Shown here: positions 22,401 to 64,000 of the stretch, piece by piece
How positions within the stretch are numbered: position 1 is the first letter of the stretch
Layout of the letters: every line of letters starts with the position of its first letter
Assembly: GCA_003693705.1 (NCBI GenBank)
Contig: RBZT01000667.1
Location: 1-64,000, forward strand
Source: Polymyxa betae A26-41
Lineage: Eukaryota; Protista; Endomyxa: Phytomyxea
Direction: 5' to 3'
DNA length: 64,000 bases
Program-made: the position numbers and the translations under genes
Notes under the pieces: generated by a model
The model's database searches: none
Seen by the model: the letters and a program-made list of their open reading frames with translations, nothing else
What the model was told of the DNA's origin: nothing

Positions 22401-25400
22401 CGGTAATATGGAACGATTCGTGAAATTCGGTGAGAATGTGCAGTTGCCGTACTAAACTGTGCGTCTTCTGAATGCCCGATACAGATACACGCTGGAGCTC
22501 GTGTAGGACCAGGTTCAGAGACCGATCAAGAAAGGTTCGAGCCCTCAGATCGTCGCCCAGCTATCCGCTATTCATTCAAATGGATGAAAGACCAAGGGCA
22601 GTATTACCTCAGCTATGTTCATGCACAGGTCGAATGCGATCCCCGGATGACGATCCAGATGGGACTCGGCAACAGTGGCAAACTCAGCAATCCGATCGCG
22701 TTGACCATCCAATTTACGAATTGATTTTTGATAGTAATTGATATATTTCAGACGCAGATGTGGATGTCCAGTGAATAGATCTACATCATCCGACCAGAGA
22801 CGGCGCCACGACTCGTCCCTAAATCAACGTCAGCCACCAGCCGTCGCGTTTCAGTGAACAAAACCAGGATCGTTCACGTTCTATACGTACGAGACGGGAT
22901 CGTCGATAGAGCTCAAAACGCTATCTAGTACAGGTTGCCATTGTCCAAGATAGGCCAAGGCCTGAATTCGCCCTTCCTCCCAGAGCTCTATCTCAAAATC
23001 ATCGACATCGGCGGTGTCGTCCTTGGTCAGCAGCGATTCGAACTGGCGAAATGCATCATGGAATGTGCCGGCGAACATGTTGGCTACAGCCTGGGATGTT
23101 TCCGGTTCATGAGCAAGTCGAAGTGACAAGGCAGCAATCATATCCGCATCATATAATGATTCATAGAGCTCATACAAACTACAGAGAGACTCTCGGTCCC
23201 AATGCTGCTTCTCAACATCGCTATCGGCACCTCGTTTTTTCGACGTCCGAACCGTCCCGTCCCGTTCTCTACAAAATGGAATGTCAGCCTGCGAAATTTC
23301 GGAACGAGTAGACATTGAACCGAGATAATGGCGCAATCTGGTGTTCCAGGAGCAGTACGCCAGATTCCAGACAGGAATTGAGCTGGGCCATGCGAATAAT
23401 GGACGCGGCCGGGATGTCGATGCGCTGGCATTGGCGGCACGCGAGAAGTACGACCGAGGCCAGAGCAGGGGACGCGACCGGCCCCGGATTCGAAACAATC
23501 TGGGCCAGGTGCAGACGGATCAGTTCGCCGTCTCGGTCCGAAACCTTGTCCATGAGCGCCGCGAACACGGTCAGAAACACAAGATCAGTTACGGATCTGT
23601 CCCGATACAGCATTCGTAATGGAGCGATAAGATCACGTTGTGGTCTATAGATCGGTTCAGCCGAACTCAGCAAAACGAACAAGCTTGAAGCAAAATGTAA
23701 AAACAGCAACGAGTCAAAAGAACGATAGAAAACGATTCCGTGCAGACATCTGAACATCGGGCAGTTCTCCGTCGCGATAGGTTCGATACAGCTGGACCGA
23801 GCGCTCACGACGTTCGCGTTGCTCACCCAGGTTGCGGGCGGCGTCGCGCTTGTCGCGATCCATGCGGCGAATAGCGGCGGCGCGGGCCTGTATGATGGGG
23901 CGCGCCCCGAACCTTTTGGGCAACCGACCCGGCAATGTCGTTGCAGCTGTTGGTCTGGCCTCCGGCTCATACGATGGCATCAGAGCATCGATGGCCGGAT
24001 TCGATGGGTCCAGCGACGAGATTGTCTACGAAATTTGATCGTGGCAGCTGTGTAGCAATCGTTATCAAACCTGACTGAGGGAAAATTCGGGATCGGGTGT
24101 GGCCGGGATGAAAGCGGGCTCCGGGGTCGACGCCACCGATGAATAGAGCGGCGTTTGGGTCGGATCGGAATACGGTCGCCACGTTCCATCGACGTTGAGT
24201 GGAACGAAATTCACCGAATCGCTGAGCGGGAACGGTGATAGCGGTTCGGACATAGCGGCGTGCTGTTCAGAGACGGACAGCCAGAGGAATGTGGCCAAAC
24301 CGATGAAATCGCATCCGATCGGCAACGCATTGAGTAACCAGATCAGTAAAGAGGACGGCGAGGTGCTGTGGGCGGCGGCGGACGATGACCAGAAATCGCC
24401 GGACAACGAACGGATATCGCGATGTTCGTCGTGGAATGCTGCCAGGAGCTGAGCGCGAACACTTCGAATGAGATCGTCGGTGAGGTCGGCGAACTTGGTG
24501 GCAATGGCGATCATAATTTTGCAGAGTGTTAGTCGAACCAGGAGGTCCGAATCGGTAGCATGTCTAAAACTGGAAATTAGCGTGATAACAATTAGTTAAG
24601 AGAGGTAAACCGAGTGAGAGCGGGCCAGATTACGTCTTTAATCTGGACTAGAGACAAGCGCGGCACAACGAGTAGCACCAAAAGCAGGATCGCCCGATCG
24701 ATCTCGGGCAGCTTCTGACCCATTGCTTGGTTTAGGACCGGAACCACGACGTTCAGAGGATTCTGTCAGCTTCGTTCACGTTCCATAGTAACATTCAACT
24801 CGCATAAAAACGAAATCGCCATGAAATTTCGAACTTCAGGCAAAAGCGGAGAAATGGCAGTTGAAATAGAATGAAAGCAAACCTGAGCAGTTGTGGCAGT
24901 TGGCATCAAGGCCTGAATAGCATTAAGCTGGAGGTCGCCCCGTCCCCGGACCGCCAGCGGCACGACCTGGCCGGCGATGCCCTCATCGACAAAAGCTGGG
25001 CAATGACGTCCGATTCGCATGACGATTGTGACAAATCGGCCACTCTGTCCCTGGTTCGCTAACGCAATGACGATGGAACGGACGCGCAAACGCCGCTGTT
25101 CGCGCTCCGAATCAGATCGGCTGCTGACACGTTCATATTCGAACAGACGCCCGAACAGCGACGCTGCACGGTTCGACACGATACGAGATTCATGCGAAAG
25201 ACAGCGCAATAGCGCGATACTGAGTTGATCGAATCCGATTTCCGACGACGGTTCGTGCTCGGGGCGCCCAATCAGGAGAGGCACCTCGATCAATGAAAGA
25301 CCAACATAGATCGATCGATTCGAAGTCGTATTACTGCAGAGACGTGGTTAGTTTCAGATCTGTGTTACATGCCCAACAGACTAACAGAATTTGGAGCCCG

Positions 25401-28400
25401 ATGCCGGCATTGAAGCGCAACGCACACGACGCCCATTTCTGTACCAGGCCACGGATTAAGGTCAGGTGGTACTGGATCTTGGATTCGGGCTGAGTTTGAT
25501 CGCCGATATCATCCGCAACCGACATCAGATGCTGGGTGAACCGCGACGCCGATTCCGTATCCGACGGGACGAAAGTCCAGTCGTGTAGGAACATGCTGGC
25601 CAAATCGGCCCTGTCCAGCGTCAGTACGATTCGCGACAAAAGTTGGGTATGGTAAGTTACAGGAGGTAATGAAATCCGACACCACCAATACTATCCGAGG
25701 TAATAACAGCGACGATGTCGGCGAACAGGAACTCGGCGTAAGGCGCGAACTCCGCCGGGCAGTTCAAAACAAGTTTGAGAACCAGAAGGCGGACCTGGAC
25801 GACGACACTGGACGACCTCATCATATCGCGTATCTGATGCACCCATAACGGCGTCGACGTCTGGGGATCGGCACCGAATCGTCGGCTCAGTTCGCGAATG
25901 AGATTGATCAGAGCCGGCATGGCCCCCAATGCGTTTAACGGATCCAGTTCCATTTGCTGAGCTGGCCCCGGAGCGGGTTCATCAGCCGCTATCACGGCAC
26001 CCAAATATGCCTCCTCACGCAGCATGAGTAGGTCTTGGCTTAGCGAGGTCGAAGAGAGCCGTACACGGGTCGCACGGCGTCGTACTGGTGGCGGTGGTTC
26101 CGAATCGGCCGCCGCCGCCATTGTTACGGCTGAGATCGGGAAAGTCATATCAATGGTGAAGCTCGGTGCCCAGAAACGATCGACCAATTGCGACCAGGTC
26201 GGGTCCGATCTGGTCTCGTTCAAGCACAGACCGACTATGAGTTTCTCGGGAGTTGACTGCGCGTCCGGAGAGGGGCGTGATAGAAGGAGAGCGCACAGAC
26301 AGCTGTAGGCGGCGGTGTGATATAAACGATCCAATTCAGGATCGTCCGGTGTCATCGCGGTCTTCAAATGGTCGGCGCATTTCTTGCAAGCCGACTTCAG
26401 GTCGGTCTGCAGCGCTGCCAACACCAGTTGACGCTCGTCTTGGAAACGCTCAAGCAGGGCGCGGATGATGTCGAAGGCACCGCGGGATGAGACCACATCG
26501 CCGGAGTCTGTCAGCTGCCAGATCGATCGGGCGTGCTGCGATACGAAGACGCCAACGACCCCGCGAACCGATCGCATAACGAACGGGACCAGGAAAGTAT
26601 CGGCGATGAAGGCGCGAGCGTTATCGTGCCGAGATCGATCGATGTTCGGGTTGGAGAAGAGGCGAATGGCCCAATGAGCCCAATAGAGGCCGTCGCTGCG
26701 GCCCAATGACGATGACGACAGCACCGAGACCAGGCTCTGCATGCACGAATCGATCGCCGCCTGCTGACGATGATGACGTTCGCGGACGATGCCAAGTAGC
26801 GATTCAAGGAGTTCCGGTCGGCGACAGAACACAAGAATGTCAAGGATTTTGGTGAGGAGCGCAGCGCAGCGCAGGTTGACGGGCGTACCGGCCTCGATGT
26901 CGATCGATTTCTGCGGCCACGGCGCCGATGTGGTTAGGCGACGAATCGAGTCAGAGAGCGTTTGATCGATGGCGTCCGACGAACTGCCGACCGTGAATAT
27001 ATGTCGGACGACGTCGAGAACATCATCGACAACTGGATCATGCTCCGATGCGAGACATTGGTCGCAGAACTTTACGATCAACTGAAGTCGTGGCTGGTGA
27101 CGATCGGCAACCAGTGACGGATCCCAGACGCAAATGCGGTGCAGAAAACGAGTCTGCGCGCGAACGTCTTCCACGTTACTAGACAGCTGATCCGGCAGAA
27201 ATTTGCAGAACGAGTCCAATGCAGCGATGATACGTTGCCTGTCGTCGGGTTCGTAAGGGCGCAGTTTCAACAAGACCTGCTCAAATCCATCAAACATGAT
27301 CGAGCGCAGATCGGAATGGGAATCGAAATTGCTGAACAGCGAACGAACCAAATCCGAGATGAGACTCAGGGAGCGATGCCGGAATAAATGAACGGAGACT
27401 GCGGTCGAGCATGAAACGCGAAACGGTTCGCTGGCGCGGATCAACTGGAACAGTTTCTGCTCTGATAGGCCGATTTCCAAGGTCAGGCCCAATATAGCAC
27501 AAGCTTGTTCATATTGTGTTGGCTCGATAGATAGGTTAGATAGCTGCGCAGCTAAACGTTCGGCAACGGTCGCTATATGCAATACCAGTGTGCCGTTCGA
27601 GCAGAGAACGAGCAGTGCGTGAACTAGATGGATACGATCAAGGAGATCGGCGGCCGAGACCTTCTCCAGATCGAATCTGCAGCAGCGCCGGATGCGACCG
27701 GCATCGATCCGGATACCACCCAGAGCACGGCGGACAGCTGTGGTGAGGTCGTGGCCGTCATGGTGCTTGCAGAATAGCACCCGAATAGCGAAGTCGACGA
27801 CGATGTCGCCGTTCAGATCGATCGCATCGACGACCTCAAATAACGATTGTAAAGAGGCGGGTTCGATCGGCGCTGGATCTTCACATGAGCCCAGAAACTG
27901 TAACAGACGCTGTTTGAACTCGTTGTTGACGACCGGCAAGGAATGAGATATGCCCCAACGGACCAGCTGCAGAGTACAAACAAAATCGAGATCATCTTTC
28001 AACGAACGGGAGATGACGGCGCGGAACTGCTCTAGATCAATCAAATCGGGGGCAGAGCCGTGGCCGGGCAAGATGGAATCGAACGCCTTTATAAACACAG
28101 CCTGGTGCTTGCAATGGTTGCGAACGATCTGCGACGCAATCCAGCGAAGAAGATCAGATAGGCTGTAGCATGTGGACATCCCCGACCGAGAGAGATCTCG
28201 ATCTTGCAGGAGATGGGCCTTACCGTGGTTCGGATCGGCAATGATACGAAGAAAATAGCCCAGAGTCCGTTCTGAGATCCGGGCCAATAGTGATCGGGTC
28301 TCGTTAAGTTCCAGCTCCATCAGCGTCATGCTGGCCAGCAGGTCATGTACGATACGTAACGTGAATTCGGCTACGAGATCGTTACGCTCACGGAAGGCGC

Positions 28401-31400
28401 GATAGATCCGGGATAGGATGCCATACGCTCCTAGACGTTTGCCACGTTCCTGGCGACGACATAAGGCGCAAACCCGCCTGAGCAAAGTTCGGACGGTGTC
28501 GAGGCGCGAAAACTTGAGCTGCCATTTGAAGCATTCGGCGATGGATTTTGACCCGATATCCCGTAACGCTGCATTACTGGAATCGCAAGCGGCATTCATG
28601 AGAGCGCTCAGCAGACCCTGGTCGTTATCACTCTGTGAGTACCAATGACATAGCTGTAGGGTCAGGGTTCGGAATGGGGTCGCCACCGAGACATCCACAT
28701 CCACCGATAAGCGCAGCGCGATCGGGAACAGATTTGAATAGATTTTCTGGAGCGGAGAAACGCGCCGTTTCCGCGGGTCGCGAGCATCGTCACAAACGCA
28801 TTTAATAATGATCGCGTGGAGATATTCGGCCGCCGAGATCTTCAGCTGACGGTCGGATGAACGTACGGCGATGTCGCAGGCGGCTGACAGGAACCGATCG
28901 AAAGTGATTGGAAGCGAGGCGCTTCTACTGAATGGCAGATCGAAATGGAGATGTAGAAGGGTATCCCAGGCATGACTGACAGACGCTTGATGCCACGATT
29001 GCGAGATGGTCTCTGGAGTGAGACCAAGCTGACCAATTAGCAGAAAAATTCGTGTTTGTAACGTCGAACTCCTGAATCATACAGGGTGAAACGTGGGTTC
29101 AGTGGGTGGTGAACGTTACGTACGTTGCATTCGATCGAATATATGAAAGGAGATAGTCGAGGATCGGCATCAAATCAGATCGCACTCGATTCGGGTCGGT
29201 CGTCCAGCTGCTTAATGTATGGACAGCAAGTTCGGCAAATTTCTCATGTAGCAGACCGATTTCGAGACTGCGCTTGATTGCAGGCAGAAGGCTGAGTCGT
29301 GAGACTATCGTGAACTATTGAGCACCATTATGATGCTTGTTATAATCCTACCGATGTTTTCAGGTACATTCAGAATGAATTCCAAATACACGAAGAGCAG
29401 CTCGTTTTCCAGATTCCCAATGCGAGCTAAGGCAATAGAGGCGACATCGCGAAGAGCATATGGTTGAGCATACCCTGTAAGCAGACTGAGAATCCATGCC
29501 AACAAGGGAACATTTTTGGAACGAATACCGTGTTCTCGACAGATAGTAACAATGCAGCCTAATAGCTTCAAACTACCAGATATATTCGGAGACGTATTCA
29601 GAAGCGGAACAACATGGTTGAAGAACTCGACACTATAGGGCCCGAACCATCGTGGCTGAACCAACGGCAGAAACGATAGACAGAAATCGACCTGGAACGG
29701 GTCACACAAGACCGCCATACTGCAGACGTATGTAATACCAAATTCAGAAAGACGGTGAAATCGTTGGGATTGGAGGGGATCGCCGAATCGCCGCCACCTT
29801 CTGATATGCTGATATCCAGTCGTGATAGAATCTGAGGAACGCGAATCATCAGAGGCAAGTGCTGCGTAAACGACCGGAAAATGTACCTTTAGAAGAGACC
29901 CGATCACCATGGAATAGATATACTTACGAGCTGGTTCAAGTAATGGCCAAACTTCAGATCGAAGTCCTCGCTGCCAATTTTCCATATCTGATACAAGCCA
30001 TTTCATCCAGAGATCGACATAATCCTCATACTCTTGACGCCCTGTTGGTTTACGGACAGCATTAAGCGACAAAACTAACGCTTGAAACACCGTCTGACGA
30101 CAACAATGAGCATACAAAAATTGGAGTGTTGCGGTAATGAATCGAACCGAGGAGAAGATCCGGTTGATAAGCGTGACTGATTGAGAAGAGACTACAGTCA
30201 ACCGGAGTAACGCTAGACAGTTCTCATCACGTCGTTTCGCATACATGGATGGAAACGAAGCAAATAGCCGAACTGATCATTAATGAGCTGATGAGAGCCT
30301 GTATTCATCCGTCGTCTACCGAGCATGGCTTGAAGAGAAACAATCGACGAACTGTCGGGATCGTTGACGTACTGGACCATCATTGCGATTGACGAAACGA
30401 ACGAGGAGAAATTGGCGGTCCGTAAATCGAGGTCTTGATTGTCAGAGGCAATATAGACGCGCTGCCACCACTCCAAGATCTCTCCAATGTACTTACGCAG
30501 CTCGCCATCCTGTTTGTACGAGTAGATAGCTCCTGCAAACAGACCTAGATGCGGAAATCAGATGATGCTTCGACATCGGACACATCCATCATTGGTGAAT
30601 ACCAATGCCGCGAACTGCTGCGGTGATCCCCGAAGTATCTGATGAGAAACGTGGCATCATTGTAATCAGCTTGCGAATGACAAACTGGTGTCCAAATCCA
30701 ATCAGGCATAATGAAAACGAACAAATTGACAAATGTTTACAGAGTATAGCGAACCCATCTCTTCGCCCTCAGAACTATCACCAACTGCAACCGAGATCTG
30801 GGCCAGGCTTTCAATAAGTGTGTTGACGTACAGAAAGACTGTTGATGACCTCATAGATGACGCTGTCGAATGCCTGTGATCCATGATGGGAAATGTCTCG
30901 GTTACGATGATAAACACAGCTCTGCAGCAGCGAAATGATCGTGGTCACACACGTCACGAACAGTGGACGAAAAAGCGTAGCTTGCTCGCTGAGCAGATCC
31001 AGCGCTGCCAATGGCACTCCATAACGTGTGTGCTCAGTAGATAAGATCGCACAAATTACCTGAATGAAAGCGACTCAGTGGCGGAAATACTAATCAGATA
31101 GATGAGCGACTTTAAAGACTGTGTCAAGCGAAGTGAAGTGCTCCGAGAACGAAGACAGGAATCCAGATAGGCCACGAAGGACGCCTTCCACGACCAAATT
31201 CGACGGCGATGTCAAATGTTTCGTGAAAATCATGTTCAGGAACTTTACTTGATCGGCTGTGACTTTGTCTGAATAGCGAGCCGAGATGACGCCAAATGCT
31301 TCTAGGACAAGTTTTCGAACTAATAAAAAAGAAATGTTGAAAACAGCATACACTCGACATTAAATTTGTATCAACCTGAATCGCTTTTCAACTTCGCCCA

Positions 31401-57565: not shown

Positions 57566-60500
57566 ATGATTGAACACCAGGAAATCCACCATGGAGCAGA
57601 GACCCAGCGAAACTGCCCAGATTGCCAGGAAAAATTACGAAAATCAGCGCCGCTGGATTCCTGCAGCTTGTTTTCAGTACTGATAATGAGATTTATGTCG
57701 CCATTGATGTCCTTGGGTTATAAAAACCCACTTACAATGGATGACATTCCCCTGCTTCCGACAGAAGACGATCTTGCTAATGCTCGTGACCGTTTTCTTC
57801 GCAATTTAGCGGTTCGTATTGTGACTTTGAAAAGATGAAGTTTATGTTTTTACAGGCGGCTCGCGCTAAGGGAGACGAATCCACTGTGTTCTGCTTAATC
57901 AAAACTTTTTGGCCCCGATGGCTCCGAGCTGCAATTGTACTCTTTTTTTCTGGTTTTGCAAGCTTGGCGAATCCTTTCATCATCACAGACTTTGTCAGAA
58001 GTATAAAAGAGAACTGCCACAACCTGACGCACGGCTTGCTAGACGCCTTAGGTCTTTTTCTCGCCGGCACTGTTTCATCGCTATTAGTGGTAAATCGCGT
58101 CTTATGCTTTGTTGTACCATGTTAACATTATCAGAATAATGCATATTACAACAATGTTCGCGTTGCTGGGGTGGTTCGCGAAGCTTTGATGGCAGCAATC
58201 TACAGTAAAAGTCTCCTACTAAGCTCATCAGCTAAAACTCCCACAACGACTGGGGAGACTGTTAACTTGATGGTAATGTGACATTCCTAGTTTGTTTGAT
58301 TTCAGTGCTTATTATCATAGTCGGCTGATACACAGCGTGTCTATGAATCCGTCCTGTATGTTCATTACATATGGCTGTCGCCTCTGATTGTCATCACCGG
58401 TCGGCGCTGGAGATTTCAAACCCCAGGTGTCGCTGATACGTGGTTGCAGTATGCGGAGTGCTGGTGTATGAAGTCGGCTTAGCAGCGCTGTATGGAATTG
58501 TTGTTTTGCTGGCACTTGTTCCTCTGCAATGGCTTGGAACTGTATTAGCTACCCGGTATCGACGAGCTATGCTTCGTCATACTGATCACAGGATTATGTT
58601 CACTTCCGAAATGCTGACTGGAATTCGGATAATCAAACAGTTCGTTTTTCGTCTGATGATCTTTTGGAAGCTTAAAATTGGAACAGATATGCTTGGGAGA
58701 AACCAGTTAGTGAAAAGGTGTCTCAAATTCGGGGTTGGTCGTTTTCTGTTGTCGCTGCAGATTATTGATTCTCGATCCTTAGCTCAAGAGATTGCTGATC
58801 TGTGGAAATTGCTGATTGTTAACAATATCTCGGTTGCCCTGTTCAACGTAAGTGATGTATTATCTGTACCGGTAGTAATTGAATGTAACAAGGTCTGGCC
58901 GGGAATTGTTACTGCTGTAATCTTTATTGGTTATGTTCTTGAGGGTCATACTCTGACGCCGTCTATTGTATCAATCCTGCAATTTTACTGGCATCAAACT
59001 GAAATTTTGTATTGTTTGCAGGTTTTTATGATTATGGCGTTACTAGTGGCAATAAGGTTTCCTATAAGCATGATACAGAAAGCCTTTCAGGTCGGCACTG
59101 ATGCCCTTGTGTCATTGCGAAGGTTTGCTGATGGCCTGATCGTCAACATTTTTTGTAAGAGTCAGTTCCTCAGAATTGGTGTATTTCTGGCTCTTCCAGA
59201 GATGGATTATACTGGTCGTACCACAGATACCGATGCGCCTGGGACGATTATCATTCGTAATGCTTCATTCAGGTATATGCGTGCATTTTCCGGTCCAAGA
59301 TAATGACATTGTTAGCTACGATCCATCGTCTCAGGCTCCTGTTCTACGAAATATCAATTTAAATGTCCAGCCTGGCACCTCTGTTGCAGTGATTGGCCCT
59401 GTTGCCTCGGGAAAATCTTCTTTATTATCGGCCATTCTGGGTGAGATCCAAACTGTTAGCGGAAGCATATCAGTATCAGGATCCACCGCATATACCAGTC
59501 AACATCACTGGATCAGAAACAAGTATGGCATTATCTGAGTTTTACGATTATCAAACGCTAATGTGGTAGTGACTAGGACAGTACGAGAGAATATTATTTT
59601 TGGGAAGGAATTCGAAGAGAACAAATACAATGCAGTGTTGGCAGCGTCAGCATTAATCCAAGACCTCAATATCTTACCTGCTGGCGATTTGACCGAGATT
59701 GGAGAACAGGTCAAAAGCGTTGATTAAAATTGCACTGCAAATAACATTCTAACAGGGAATAAATCTGAGTGGTGGTCAGAAAGCACGAATCATGTTTGCT
59801 CGTGGTAATTTTTCCCTTGTGAAGCATTATGTCGATGCGATCTGAACGTACCTTTAGCGTGCTACGCTGATGCCGACATTGCTTTGCTTGATGATCCATT
59901 CTCTGCTGTTGATGTGAACACTGGTAACATTATGTTTCAGTATGGCATCAGAGGTACGTACGAGTTCAACCAGCATCTATTTCACTTTTCGGATCTTACC
60001 TAGGCCTTCTGTCTCGCACGACCCGTGTCATTACATTAAACTCTCATCTGCATTTTCTTAACAACGTTGATCTCATTGTCTATTTTAGACTGCCTGAAGG
60101 TTTGCTTAGCGCTGAGCTTCGTATTTTTTGTGTCTTCTTGAGTGATTCAGTTATCAGGTGAAGGAGACACTATTGTTGAAATATACGATTGCTATCAGAA
60201 CTTTACTGAATGTCATCCTAATTTTGAATTTGCTGAAGGCAAGCCCGCTGAAGAAGCGAACATAACGGTTGCAATGAAGCAGTCGATAGTAAAGGAAATC
60301 CTGGTTGAGAAGGAAATGGAACAGGTCTTCTTATCTCTGCAGCACAGCTCTCACTGCAACTGAAATGGATTCAGATAGGAACCGTTCGGCCCCGTGTTTA
60401 TCTGGACTATTTAAAGCAATGTTCAGTTTTTGGTGCTGTATTTTCTGGACTGATAATCCTCTTATCATTCCTGATTGGCCAGCTTATTCGTGTTGGCTCC

Positions 60501-62908
60501 GATTTAGTGTCTGGGTTCTGGTCGCAAATGCTGCATCCAGGTTAGCATTAGTTCAGTTCCCAACGCTTTTCCAGAATCGGTTTCTCTAGATCAGAATTGG
60601 TGGATTCTGCTTCAGAGCACAATAACGGCAGCGGCTCTTGTCACTTTTGTAATTCGTTCGTTTATTTTCAACAATATGACTGTTCGCGCTGGTCGGCTTT
60701 TACATGATACTCTGTTCGAGCGGATTGTGAGAGCACCTGTACCGATATTCTATGGTCAGCAGTCAAGAGCATTGGTGTGTTCTCTTTCCCCTAATGCGAA
60801 CAGATATCACTCCAATTGGGCGCGTTGTGAATCGGTTTAGCAAAGATATGGACCAAATTGATGTTTCAATTTCAGACTTTTTAGGTTCGTCGATTTAATC
60901 GCAAATTTTGCCAACATCATCTGATTATGTACTTGACAGGGCAGCTGTTATTATATGGGTTGACTTTAGGTCTGATATGATATTCGTGCACTCTACGTAC
61001 TCTAACGCTGGGACTCAGTGATTTCGGTTCTACTTAGTTGCTACGCACTCCCATGGTTCATCCTTCCGCTTGTGCCAATAATGGCTTTCTTTTATTGGAT
61101 CCAGCGATACTTCCGTTATAGCAGTAGGCAACTTAAGCGTATCGAAGGGACCTCACGCTCACCAATTTTCTCAAAATTTGAAGAAACGTTGACAGGTAAC
61201 TATGTTAGAATGTTAGAACTTTCTGGGCGGCAGTGTCATTGCTGTATACAGGTTTGGCCACGATTCGTGCCCATCGGAAACAGCTCGAATTTACCCATGA
61301 GGCTGAGCACACTATTGAACGAAATAGCCAGGCTCTACTGGCCAATGTAAAGTTGGCGATCTATTTGTGATAGAATGACAAACACATTCTAGCAACTAGC
61401 TGGAAGATGGTTGGCACTGCGACTTGACCTGGTTTCGAACTTGGTCATTGCTGGAGTTGCAGTTGCGATCGCATCGATTAGCTGCTCTGTTGATTTAGCA
61501 ATCGCCATTGTTGCTCTGGTTCAAGTGTGATCTTGCCGAAACCTTTCATTTTCAACGAACGTCATTGCCGACTTAGGTCACGCAACTAACAGGGATGCTG
61601 CAGTGGACTGTTCGTGTGTCGACTGAAGTTGAGAACAATGTTATTATGTATTTACAGTTAAAGTGGCTTCCTGATTTCTTCCAGATGACTGCAGTTGAGC
61701 GCGTTTTAGAATATACAGATGTGGCTCCAGAAGCCCCGTCAACGACACCAAACGACCCTGATGAATCTTGGCCGAACAAGGGAGAAATCGTACTTCGAAA
61801 TCTTGTATGGCAATTCTTCACTGTCTAGCTACTGCCTTTAATTTACCCGAACAGCGAGCTCGATATCGACCAGAATTACCTTTGGTTTTGAAAGGAATTA
61901 ACGCTCATATCAAGTCGATGGAAAAGGTTGGCATTTGTGGCCGAACTGGTATCATTTCTGAAATTGATCTGTGATATGCGATAATCTGTTTCTCAAGGAT
62001 CCGGAAAATCGTCCTTGCTGTTGTGCTTACTAAGAATGATTGAACGAGACCCTTCCGGGGGACCAATCATTATCGACGATGTTCCTACCGATACTATTGG
62101 ATTACATTGTTTGCGATCGCGGATCAGTGTTATCCCTCAAGACGCTGTGCTATTTTCTGGTACGATTAGACAAAATCTTGATGTCTGTAAAGGTTGCTCT
62201 ATTTTTTGTGTTCTTTACTGATATGTATAGCCGTTTAATGAGCGAACTGATGAAGAAATAACCGAATCGTTGCGACATGTATATTTCATTTCAGATCGAA
62301 GCAGTGTGTCATTAGATGATATGGTTGCTGAAAGAGGCTCAAATTTTAGCTTCGGGCAACGTCAGTTGATTGTCAGCCACGTTAACTTCTTGGTAGTCGA
62401 TATATTTTACTAATATGCATTGTAGTGCATCGCCAGGGCATTTTTACGACGCTCGAAGATTATTATCTGCGATGGTAATAATAGTGTAATTGCTGCAGCT
62501 TAATTTACATTATTTTTTAGAGGCTACATCGGGAATTGATTCCAAGACGGATGAATTGATTCAAGCAGCAATACGATCACTGTTCAGTAAGTCAATCGTA
62601 CTCAGACTGCAAAGAAATCAAAATGGATTCAAAGAGAGACAAACCGTAATCACAGTTGCTCATCGTCTTGAAACAATTGCGGATTCTGACCGAATTATGG
62701 TTATTCGGGAAGGCATTGTTGAAGAATTTGATACACCACAGAATCTCATTGGTATTCGTAACTATTTGTGCAAACATAACGACTATAACCGCTTACAGAC
62801 AATCCTAATGGATACTTCCGACAGATGGTGGAAAGTGTGGGAGAATCTGCAGTTGAGCGGTTCAAGGCCATCACCAAAAAGAATATATTTACTAATCATG
62901 CTGATTAA
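57566..62908 (+). CDS. ABCC/MRP-type full ABC transporter, highly intron-rich
   Basis: Walker [59 protein letters not shown]|[23 protein letters not shown]. Confidence 0.95.
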
Positions 62909-63505
62909 AAATGTACAATCTCGTGCATTACTTGATAGCGATGCAGAACGGCTTTGAAAAAATTTCGTCTTTTCCGAATTTGTTCCAAGAATATTGCTCT
63001 AACAGGATTATAAGCAATCTGAAGCGTTACTCGCATCTTCTAGTAACGGGTATCAACATTCGAATATTCAGCCTTTAAGCGTTTTGAACCCGTTTGATTG
63101 CCATGGAGATAATTTAGCAGGCAACGAAACTGATTCTACAGCCCAGTAGATTAAAACTCATTTATCAATAATTGCAAACTAAGTAAACACATTCTTAATC
63201 CTGTGAATGCGTATAATAGCCCAATGCTCATACCACAGACGCTTTTGATGTCTCTGTACGATGGCTAGTCGTCTAATGGAGGCTAACGTACAGTATATCG
63301 CGTGCAGAATTAAATAGCTGTACTTGTTAATAAATTAAAACTGTTCCATCAGTGGGCTGCGCCATACAAAGTTGACCCCCTGTCCTTACAAAGTTCATCC
63401 TGCGCAGCCCCTCTTTGGTACACTGGCGGGTGTTCCGTATGCCGTGGCGGTGTGTTCCAGGTCGTGCCGGGACCTTCGTGGTACGAACGCGCCAAATTTC
63501 AAACG

Positions 63506-64000
63506 ATGCGCTTTCTCGATGATGAGGCCGATGAGGTTGAAGTCGATCGTGAGGCCGTGGAGGCTGGTGATGAGGGCGATTTGACTACGACGAAGGCGCG
63601 GTCAATGGTGTTTACTTTCCATGTGAATCAAGAAATTTGGCTGGATGGTGTTAACATGGGCCCGGCTCCGGTTGATGGCGTTCCTGATCCGGAGGTTTTG
63701 CTGCGGTCGTTGCCGGCGAAGTATCTCGTGTGGGGCCGCGAGGTCGCCCCCGAGACCGGCGCTTTTCATCTCCAGGGTTATGTCCAATGGCGGAGCCCGA
63801 TGTCGTTTAAGTCCGTACATAATAAGTTAAAGCCCTACAAGGTTTGGCTGAAAAGGGCTTACGGCAATGCCGCGGCGAACCGCGAGTATTGCACGAAGTC
63901 CGGCGATTTCGTGGAGGTGGGCAAGCGTCCTCCCGACGGGTCCGTCGAAGGCGGTACCCGTTGGGAGGAGGCGGTTGAGCTTGCCCGCTGCGGTCGAATC
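63506..64000 (+). mobile_element. rep: CRESS-DNA-virus-type replication initiator (HUH Rep), putative endogenous viral element; runs off window
   Basis: 165 open codons: MRFLDDEADEVE..., motif I VFTFH (63608-63622), KYLVWGREVAPETG, motif II HLQGY (63767-63781), motif III NREYCTK (Y at 63887), then GTRWEEAVELARCGRI. Confidence 0.92.

Follow-up and report, generated by a model that had tools for sequence, protein, structure and literature searches.

An apparently intact CRESSV2-type Rep gene joined to chromosomal DNA of the plasmodiophorid Polymyxa betae

To our knowledge, most lineages of CRESS-DNA viruses are without a known host, and the DNA viruses of plasmodiophorids themselves are barely known. 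Plasmodiophorids are not culturable, and they are vectors of soil-borne plant viruses. In other groups, integrated copies have been used as evidence of the host. Endogenous elements of Kirkoviridae and CRESSV1 revealed protist hosts (PMC9615429), and oomycete EVEs have been cited likewise as host evidence (PMC13499601). Kinsella and van der Hoek (2023) reported draupnirvirus-like EVEs for Polymyxa betae, which their supplementary table lists as one rep row of 168 bp and one cap row of 551 bp (PMC10193959). Given that plasmodiophorids are thus already in print as CRESS hosts, the broad host link is not new.

Here, we describe a further locus, found in P. betae A26-41 at the end of what we call the window, that is, the whole analysed stretch of 64,000 nt (contig RBZT01000667.1, positions 1 to 64,000). 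The logic is the same as in PMC9615429 and PMC13499601, where an orphan virus lineage is assigned a host through an integrated Rep, but those cases differ from ours, in which the host is a rhizarian root parasite and the element is apparently intact and transcribed. Like the elements of Kinsella and van der Hoek, the locus represents CRESS-derived DNA in a plasmodiophorid assembly; however, their Rep piece covers 56 codons and belongs to the Draupnirviridae (CRESSV3), whereas the Rep in the window has at least 165 intact codons and a CRESSV2-type helix. An overlap between the two is conceivable, as they are set apart by description, length and group only. An earlier reading of the window, made from the sequence alone (hereafter, the sequence-only reading), had raised the possibility of a link between a CRESS lineage and this host. 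This stands insofar as the lineage differs from the published one, but Rep and Cap pieces from P. betae had already appeared (PMC10193959). What seems to be new is the presence of a CRESSV2-type lineage in this host, its intact state and its apparent expression. The literature that we searched, mostly open-access, contained no CRESSV2-type element in plasmodiophorids or Rhizaria, and the 2021 survey by Zhao, Lavington and Duffy may cover the locus.

The window ends at 64000 within the Rep gene, of which only the 5′ part is read here. A stop-free frame on the + strand extends from 63314 to the window end, with an ATG at 63506 followed by 165 codons to 64000, and the computed chance of a stop-free run of 164 codons is about 0.002 at this composition. 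The sequence-only reading had described an unbroken frame from this ATG that carried FTFH, GREVAPETGAFHLQGY, YCTK and the RWEEAVELARCG helix, and all of these are present. The features of the locus and of its host flank are as follows.

60000..62908, + strand: 3′ part of an ABCC/MRP-type transporter gene (family assigned from the translation), with 15 listed introns of 46–58 nt
63179..63233, − strand: host intron of 55 nt, GT-AG, in a minus-strand transcript overlapping the 3′ end of the ABC transporter gene
63336..63354, no strand: host–element junction zone, with the change point at 63345, divergence of run X13 after 63342 and an acceptor-like AG at 63341–63342
63354..63410, no strand: left-end hairpin, with perfect 9-bp arms (63354–63362 and 63402–63410)
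63489..63503, no strand: motif just 5′ of the ATG, with the same placement in the relative L001 (49–63); a lead only
63506..64000, + strand: 5′ part of the Rep gene, 165 codons, encoding an acidic leader, the HUH endonuclease and the first part of the oligomerisation helix
63611..63622, + strand: rolling-circle motif I, FTFH
63632..63682, + strand: insertion of about 17 residues after motif I, a low-confidence loop in the AlphaFold model
63767..63775, + strand: motif II, HLQ (HUQ), within GREVAPETGAFHLQGY, with Glu79 upstream
63887..63898, + strand: motif III, YCTK, with a single catalytic Tyr
63959..63994, + strand: RWEEAVELARCG helix, CRESSV2-type

In Pfam, Viral_Rep was the only family that Rep matched, with a score of 35.8 bits against a cut-off of 26 and an E of 1e-8, and its sequence matches in the PDB were circovirus and nanovirus Reps (best circovirus E 2.4e-5). 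In the ESM Atlas, the neighbours of the window Rep were Viral_Rep clusters (0.93), and an AlphaFold model built from a 21-row alignment (pLDDT 79.8) matched the Rep of PCV2 at E 1.5e-7. Thus, Pfam, PDB, ESM Atlas and fold comparison all return Viral_Rep/HUH, as had been anticipated, and, judged by its motifs, the predicted protein is a CRESS-DNA-virus Rep endonuclease in which HUH motifs I–III are all present. The gene had also been read as intronless, and RNA-like contigs are indeed colinear with it wherever they reach, namely over 63349–63815 and 63929–64000. Its GC3 is 0.65, compared with 0.42–0.54 in nine of the ten other long frames of the window; the one host frame with a value near that of Rep is DNA-PKcs (0.62). 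The absence of stops had been contrasted with the rest of the accessory DNA in the window. This is correct for Rep itself, but the contrast was overstated, since a DDE_Tnp_4 (Harbinger/IS5-like transposase) frame at 2–820 (+; 87.8 bits) likewise runs for 272 codons without a stop.

With regard to the named groups, in the part of the alignments of Kazlauskas et al. (2019, PMC6668415) that we compared, a W-x-A-x-G helix follows motif III in 8 of the 9 complete CRESSV2 rows shown (33 in the file), while the CRESSV3 rows read (22 in the file) have a G-R-x-D pattern in 8 of 9 cases and the W-A-G helix in 0 of 9. Comparison of the alignments by eye places the CRESSV2 helix in the window Rep. With CRESSV2/Adamaviridae (order Rohanvirales), it has in common this helix and the HUQ form of motif II, and the helicase patterns W-x-D-x-Y-P and I-R-P are seen in its relatives; it differs from that group in its position in a long-branch subclade and its 17-residue insertion, and its relatives have a Cys-rich C-terminal extension. 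Our tree comprised 129 proteins (matches of at least 250 aa, six named references, the window Rep and the metagenomic relative L001, with shorter matches excluded), and its alignment had 276 columns, 117 of them for the window Rep, with one classified adamavirus and no draupnirvirus. The window Rep, L001 and P0036 form a group (SH 0.969 / aLRT 97.3) that P0115 joins at 0.957 / 85.6, and the enclosing clades of 75 and 84 taxa (0.939 / 94.9 and 0.991 / 98.5) include Lake Sarah-associated circular virus-7 (Adamaviridae). In a tree of the N-terminal 117 columns only, support for the three-member clade drops to 0.896 and P0115 falls outside. By motif and tree, then, the window Rep is classed as CRESSV2-type, in a small unnamed clade.

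The Draupnirviridae (CRESSV3) were rejected by motif: G-x-R-x-D-hydrophobic is absent from both the window Rep and L001, and, in place of the helicase motif L-L-x-x-L-D-R-Y-P of that family, L001 shows another pattern. Replitrons, as characterised in Craig 2023 (PMC10288648), have SUTU as motif I, GYxxK as motif III and no helicase domain, and they form a multi-copy family with short direct terminal repeats. They resemble the window in combining a Y1 Rep with HUQ, a eukaryotic chromosome, and a hairpin with short direct repeats near the end; however, they are without the helicase, and relatives of the window Rep have one of the SF3 type. Replitrons were rejected by motif as well, with SUTU and GYxxK absent and VFTF and EYCTK in their place. 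Helitrons (Y2 Rep with an SF1B helicase) were also rejected, as the YCTK of the window has a single Tyr and the relatives have SF3. The sequence-only reading had allowed for either an endogenised virus or a Rep transposon; the evidence supports an endogenised CRESS Rep, and the transposon half has lost ground as far as Replitrons and Helitrons are concerned.

A phmmer search of 1.84 billion representatives gave 2535 matches at E ≤ 1e-3 and none at 1e-30. Among the best 25, 22 score for Viral_Rep and 21 also for the SF3 helicase family PF00910, and, among the best 20, identity is at most 49% to any match of 250 aa or more. The closest relatives (P0035, P0037, P0083 and P0084) are metagenomic records, and they share the insertion of about 17 residues after motif I. 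The spacing after motif I is 37 in the window and 37–38 in this insertion clade, against a mode of 20 among 150 matches; outside the clade, two of the 150 have a similar spacing (38 and 41). A metagenome scan recovered L001 (1954 nt; 64% in its best segment), which encodes P0037. Its Rep is interrupted in motif II by a 54-nt GT-AG intron, which is no proof of a plasmodiophorid host because short introns occur in other hosts too. Further on, the protein contains Walker A, Walker B and motif C, and it has a Cys-rich tail in common with P0036 and P0115. The Rep gene is followed by a polyadenylation-like signal and by a small frame that bears an intron and has no Pfam match, and no capsid is recognisable in the 1954 nt. 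By analogy with L001 and P0036, the closest full-length relatives, which carry an SF3 helicase, the full window Rep would continue into such a helicase and, if it had the length of the L001 protein, would stop near 64900. The introns or intron-like stretches L001:320-373 and L001:1623-1672 share 35 nt at 77% identity, which hints at a common origin.

Some of the other matches differ in their state. P0064 is without the catalytic Tyr, and P0083 appears to shift frame after GRE (a weak test, E 0.12); these seemingly decayed proteins may represent endogenous copies in other soil protists. The set P0195–P0230 includes many CRESSV2-type Reps of 280 aa on contigs of 1.0–1.3 kb, as expected of Rep-only circles or multipartite segments. 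As for a free circular genome of the clade, scans of viral contigs with the window Rep, P0036 and clade alignments yielded no close member: the clade alignments retrieved distant Reps only (best segments at most 51% identical), and the single match to the insertion motif, 17 residues long and located in an 88.9-kb contig, was due to chance. The second exon of L001 had no tblastn match in a phage collection, and a word-index search of the longer proteins was empty, although this is weak evidence.

The flank of Rep is host DNA. A TBC-domain protein of the window is 62% identical to that of Spongospora subterranea and 61% to that of Plasmodiophora brassicae, and the next full-length matches reach at most 40%, as expected of a plasmodiophorid that belongs to neither of these two species. 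Public runs containing part of 61000–64000 numbered 16 of the 24 listed, and eight runs were compared with the window. In two DNA runs from two studies, X1 (depth 190) and X2 (14.5), positions 60000–64000 lie inside a single 8087-nt contig each, which extends 1049 nt beyond the window end and would include the stop expected near 64900; the two contigs differ at a single base, 62857. In a third study (run X8), a spliced contig spans the junction unbroken over 63234–63406, with 109 and 64 letters on either side. The host–Rep junction, at about 63343–63354, is real, and Rep is joined to plasmodiophorid chromosomal DNA. The best change point in GC content is 63345 (interval 63336–63402). The abrupt rise that had been reported near 63350 was counted exactly (39/60 at 63721–63780 against 20/60 at 63121–63180), but a GC content of about 58% also occurs elsewhere in the window: at 23–29 kb, around the DNA-PKcs gene, nine bins of 500 nt reach 53–59%, and GC alone is therefore weak proof of foreign origin. 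This DNA-PKcs region (23000–29100, −) holds a stop-free frame of 1139 codons, and its surroundings have 45% GC and are intron-dense.

Host introns measure 46–58 nt (n = 16), and the neighbouring gene has about one per 180 nt. The GT-AG borders of the intron at 63179–63233 lie on the minus strand, which means that the 3′ end of the transporter gene is overlapped by a leftward host transcript. In X13, a strain with a few base differences, the sequence follows this transcript to 63342 and continues with 393 nt of different sequence. The departure could be an empty-site allele or a splice, and a splice is more likely because on the minus strand the AG at 63341–63342 is accompanied, 12 nt from the end of the intron, by a CTRAY motif, a combination present at 0.47% of window positions. 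CTRAY-type motifs also occur in 4 of 15 plus-strand host introns. If X13 departs by a splice, the element would lie in an intron of the minus-strand host gene, as it probably does. The loose-end motif of X13 was not found in the window. The minus-strand transcript at 63109–63342 joins other sequence in X13, and among the joins listed for four other spliced runs there is none of this kind; the insertion may disturb the host gene in this interval.

At the left end of the element, the hairpin encloses two 17-nt direct repeats, at 63362 and 63384. It has a z of −3.1 (1 of 200 shuffles), for a stretch that was picked after the fact. Hairpin and repeats (63354–63410) are together a candidate origin or set of iterons. 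The consensus nonanucleotide of CRESS stem-loop origins is NANTATTAC, and nothing resembling it occurs on either strand of 62501–64000, the right end of the element lying outside the window. The motif at 63489–63503 resembles what we take to be an E2F site, and the window shows no enrichment of the E2F-like octamer (2 observed, 2.45 expected). There is no capsid gene in 58000–64000 and no second Rep copy within the 64 kb.

Runs X3, X4, X5, X8, X12 and X13 were taken as RNA solely because host introns are skipped in them, none being recorded as such. Rep-region contigs occur in four of these six (X3, X4, X5 and X8, from three studies) at depths of 3–7. They cover 63349–63705 in X4, 63373–63815 in X3, 63452–63782 and 63939 onwards in X5, and 63658–63813 and 63929 onwards in X8. 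X12 and X13 have no Rep-region contig, and both are of low depth and were not counted as evidence. These RNA-like contigs, which show neither strand nor expression level, suggest that Rep is likely transcribed. For the window copy, no base differences are listed across X1, X2, X3, X4, X5 and X8, and a second Rep contig has 9 differences in the 65 bases around motif III. This contig is 958 nt long in X1, where its depth is 170 against 190 for the window contig, and its depth in X2 is 17.8 against 14.5; it also appears in X3, X5 and X8 (1581 nt, depth 36.4). The near-equal depth in two DNA libraries favours a second chromosomal locus over a free virus, and we infer that a second, diverged Rep sits at chromosome-like depth elsewhere in the genome.

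The intact motifs, the real junction, the RNA-like cover and the second, diverged Rep lead us to consider it probable that the locus is a recently integrated CRESS-DNA virus (or its capsid-less replicon) from an unnamed clade of CRESSV2 type, for which this protist is a likely host. The Rep of the free virus would bind the repeats at the hairpin origin, use Tyr128 to nick the DNA and drive rolling-circle replication in the nucleus of the host. A replicative form probably became part of the chromosome, joined either by Rep or by repair, directly behind the ABC transporter gene and probably in an intron of the minus-strand host gene. The element probably brought its own promoter, which would account for Rep transcripts, and the insertion is likely of recent date.

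It is also possible, though unlikely, that we are dealing with a Rep element that has a helicase but no capsid and spreads by copying to new sites in the chromosomes, that is, a transposon-like integrating replicon of CRESS origin. Such an element would fit the presence, at chromosome-like depth, of at least two diverged Rep loci, both of which turn up in spliced runs. It would also fit the position of the hairpin and direct repeats exactly at the left end, the lack of a recognisable capsid in L001, the possible lack of the insertion in X13 and decayed relatives such as P0064, which has lost the catalytic Tyr. However, the window copy is found in a unique 8087-nt contig, which makes near-identical Rep copies unlikely, its paralog differs at 9 of 65 bases, no second copy occurs in the 64-kb window, and the signatures of Replitrons and Helitrons are missing. 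Domestication of an old viral Rep by the host, with selection keeping it intact, strikes us as very improbable. The frame is intact and apparently transcribed across three studies, and the contig of the paralog reaches a high depth (36.4) in X8, but 495 nt pass without an intron beside a gene that has about one per 180 nt, the GC step is sharp, there is no plasmodiophorid-named orthologue among the best matches looked up, and the catalytic residues are all kept, unlike those of the domesticated poxvirus Reps described in PMC10193959.

Still less credible, in our judgement, is an accidental capture from a virus of another root or soil organism for which the plasmodiophorid is not a normal host. 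The relatives are metagenomic records, and the data here tie no exogenous member of the clade to any host; nevertheless, two separate Rep loci suggest that the nucleus was exposed repeatedly, and the relative L001 has an intron of host size. As to an assembly chimera or a contaminant fused to a host contig, X1 and X2 were both flagged as possible assembly sources, and contigs carry one depth figure each, hence no per-base depth across the junction. Yet the same contig, with one base difference, appears in two libraries that differ in year, study and depth, and the junction claimed by the sequence-only reading is bridged by contigs of X1 and X2 and, in a third study, by a spliced host contig of X8, so that we regard such an artefact as barely conceivable.

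If the integrated virus is the correct reading, an intact integrated Rep would give a host to one more CRESS clade, and plasmodiophorids would have a second CRESS lineage besides the published draupnirvirus-like pieces. An insertion that is intact, apparently expressed and possibly confined to certain isolates could act as a strain marker, or it could open the way to a virus that naturally infects a crop parasite. A more far-reaching and rather doubtful possibility is an active DNA virus or self-integrating Rep replicon of plasmodiophorids from this CRESSV2-type clade, with intron-bearing Reps, insertion into host genes, variation among isolates, expressed in root infection and able to form circles. 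If this were true, it would represent the first active DNA parasite that our searches found in a protist vector of plant viruses, and a candidate new family.
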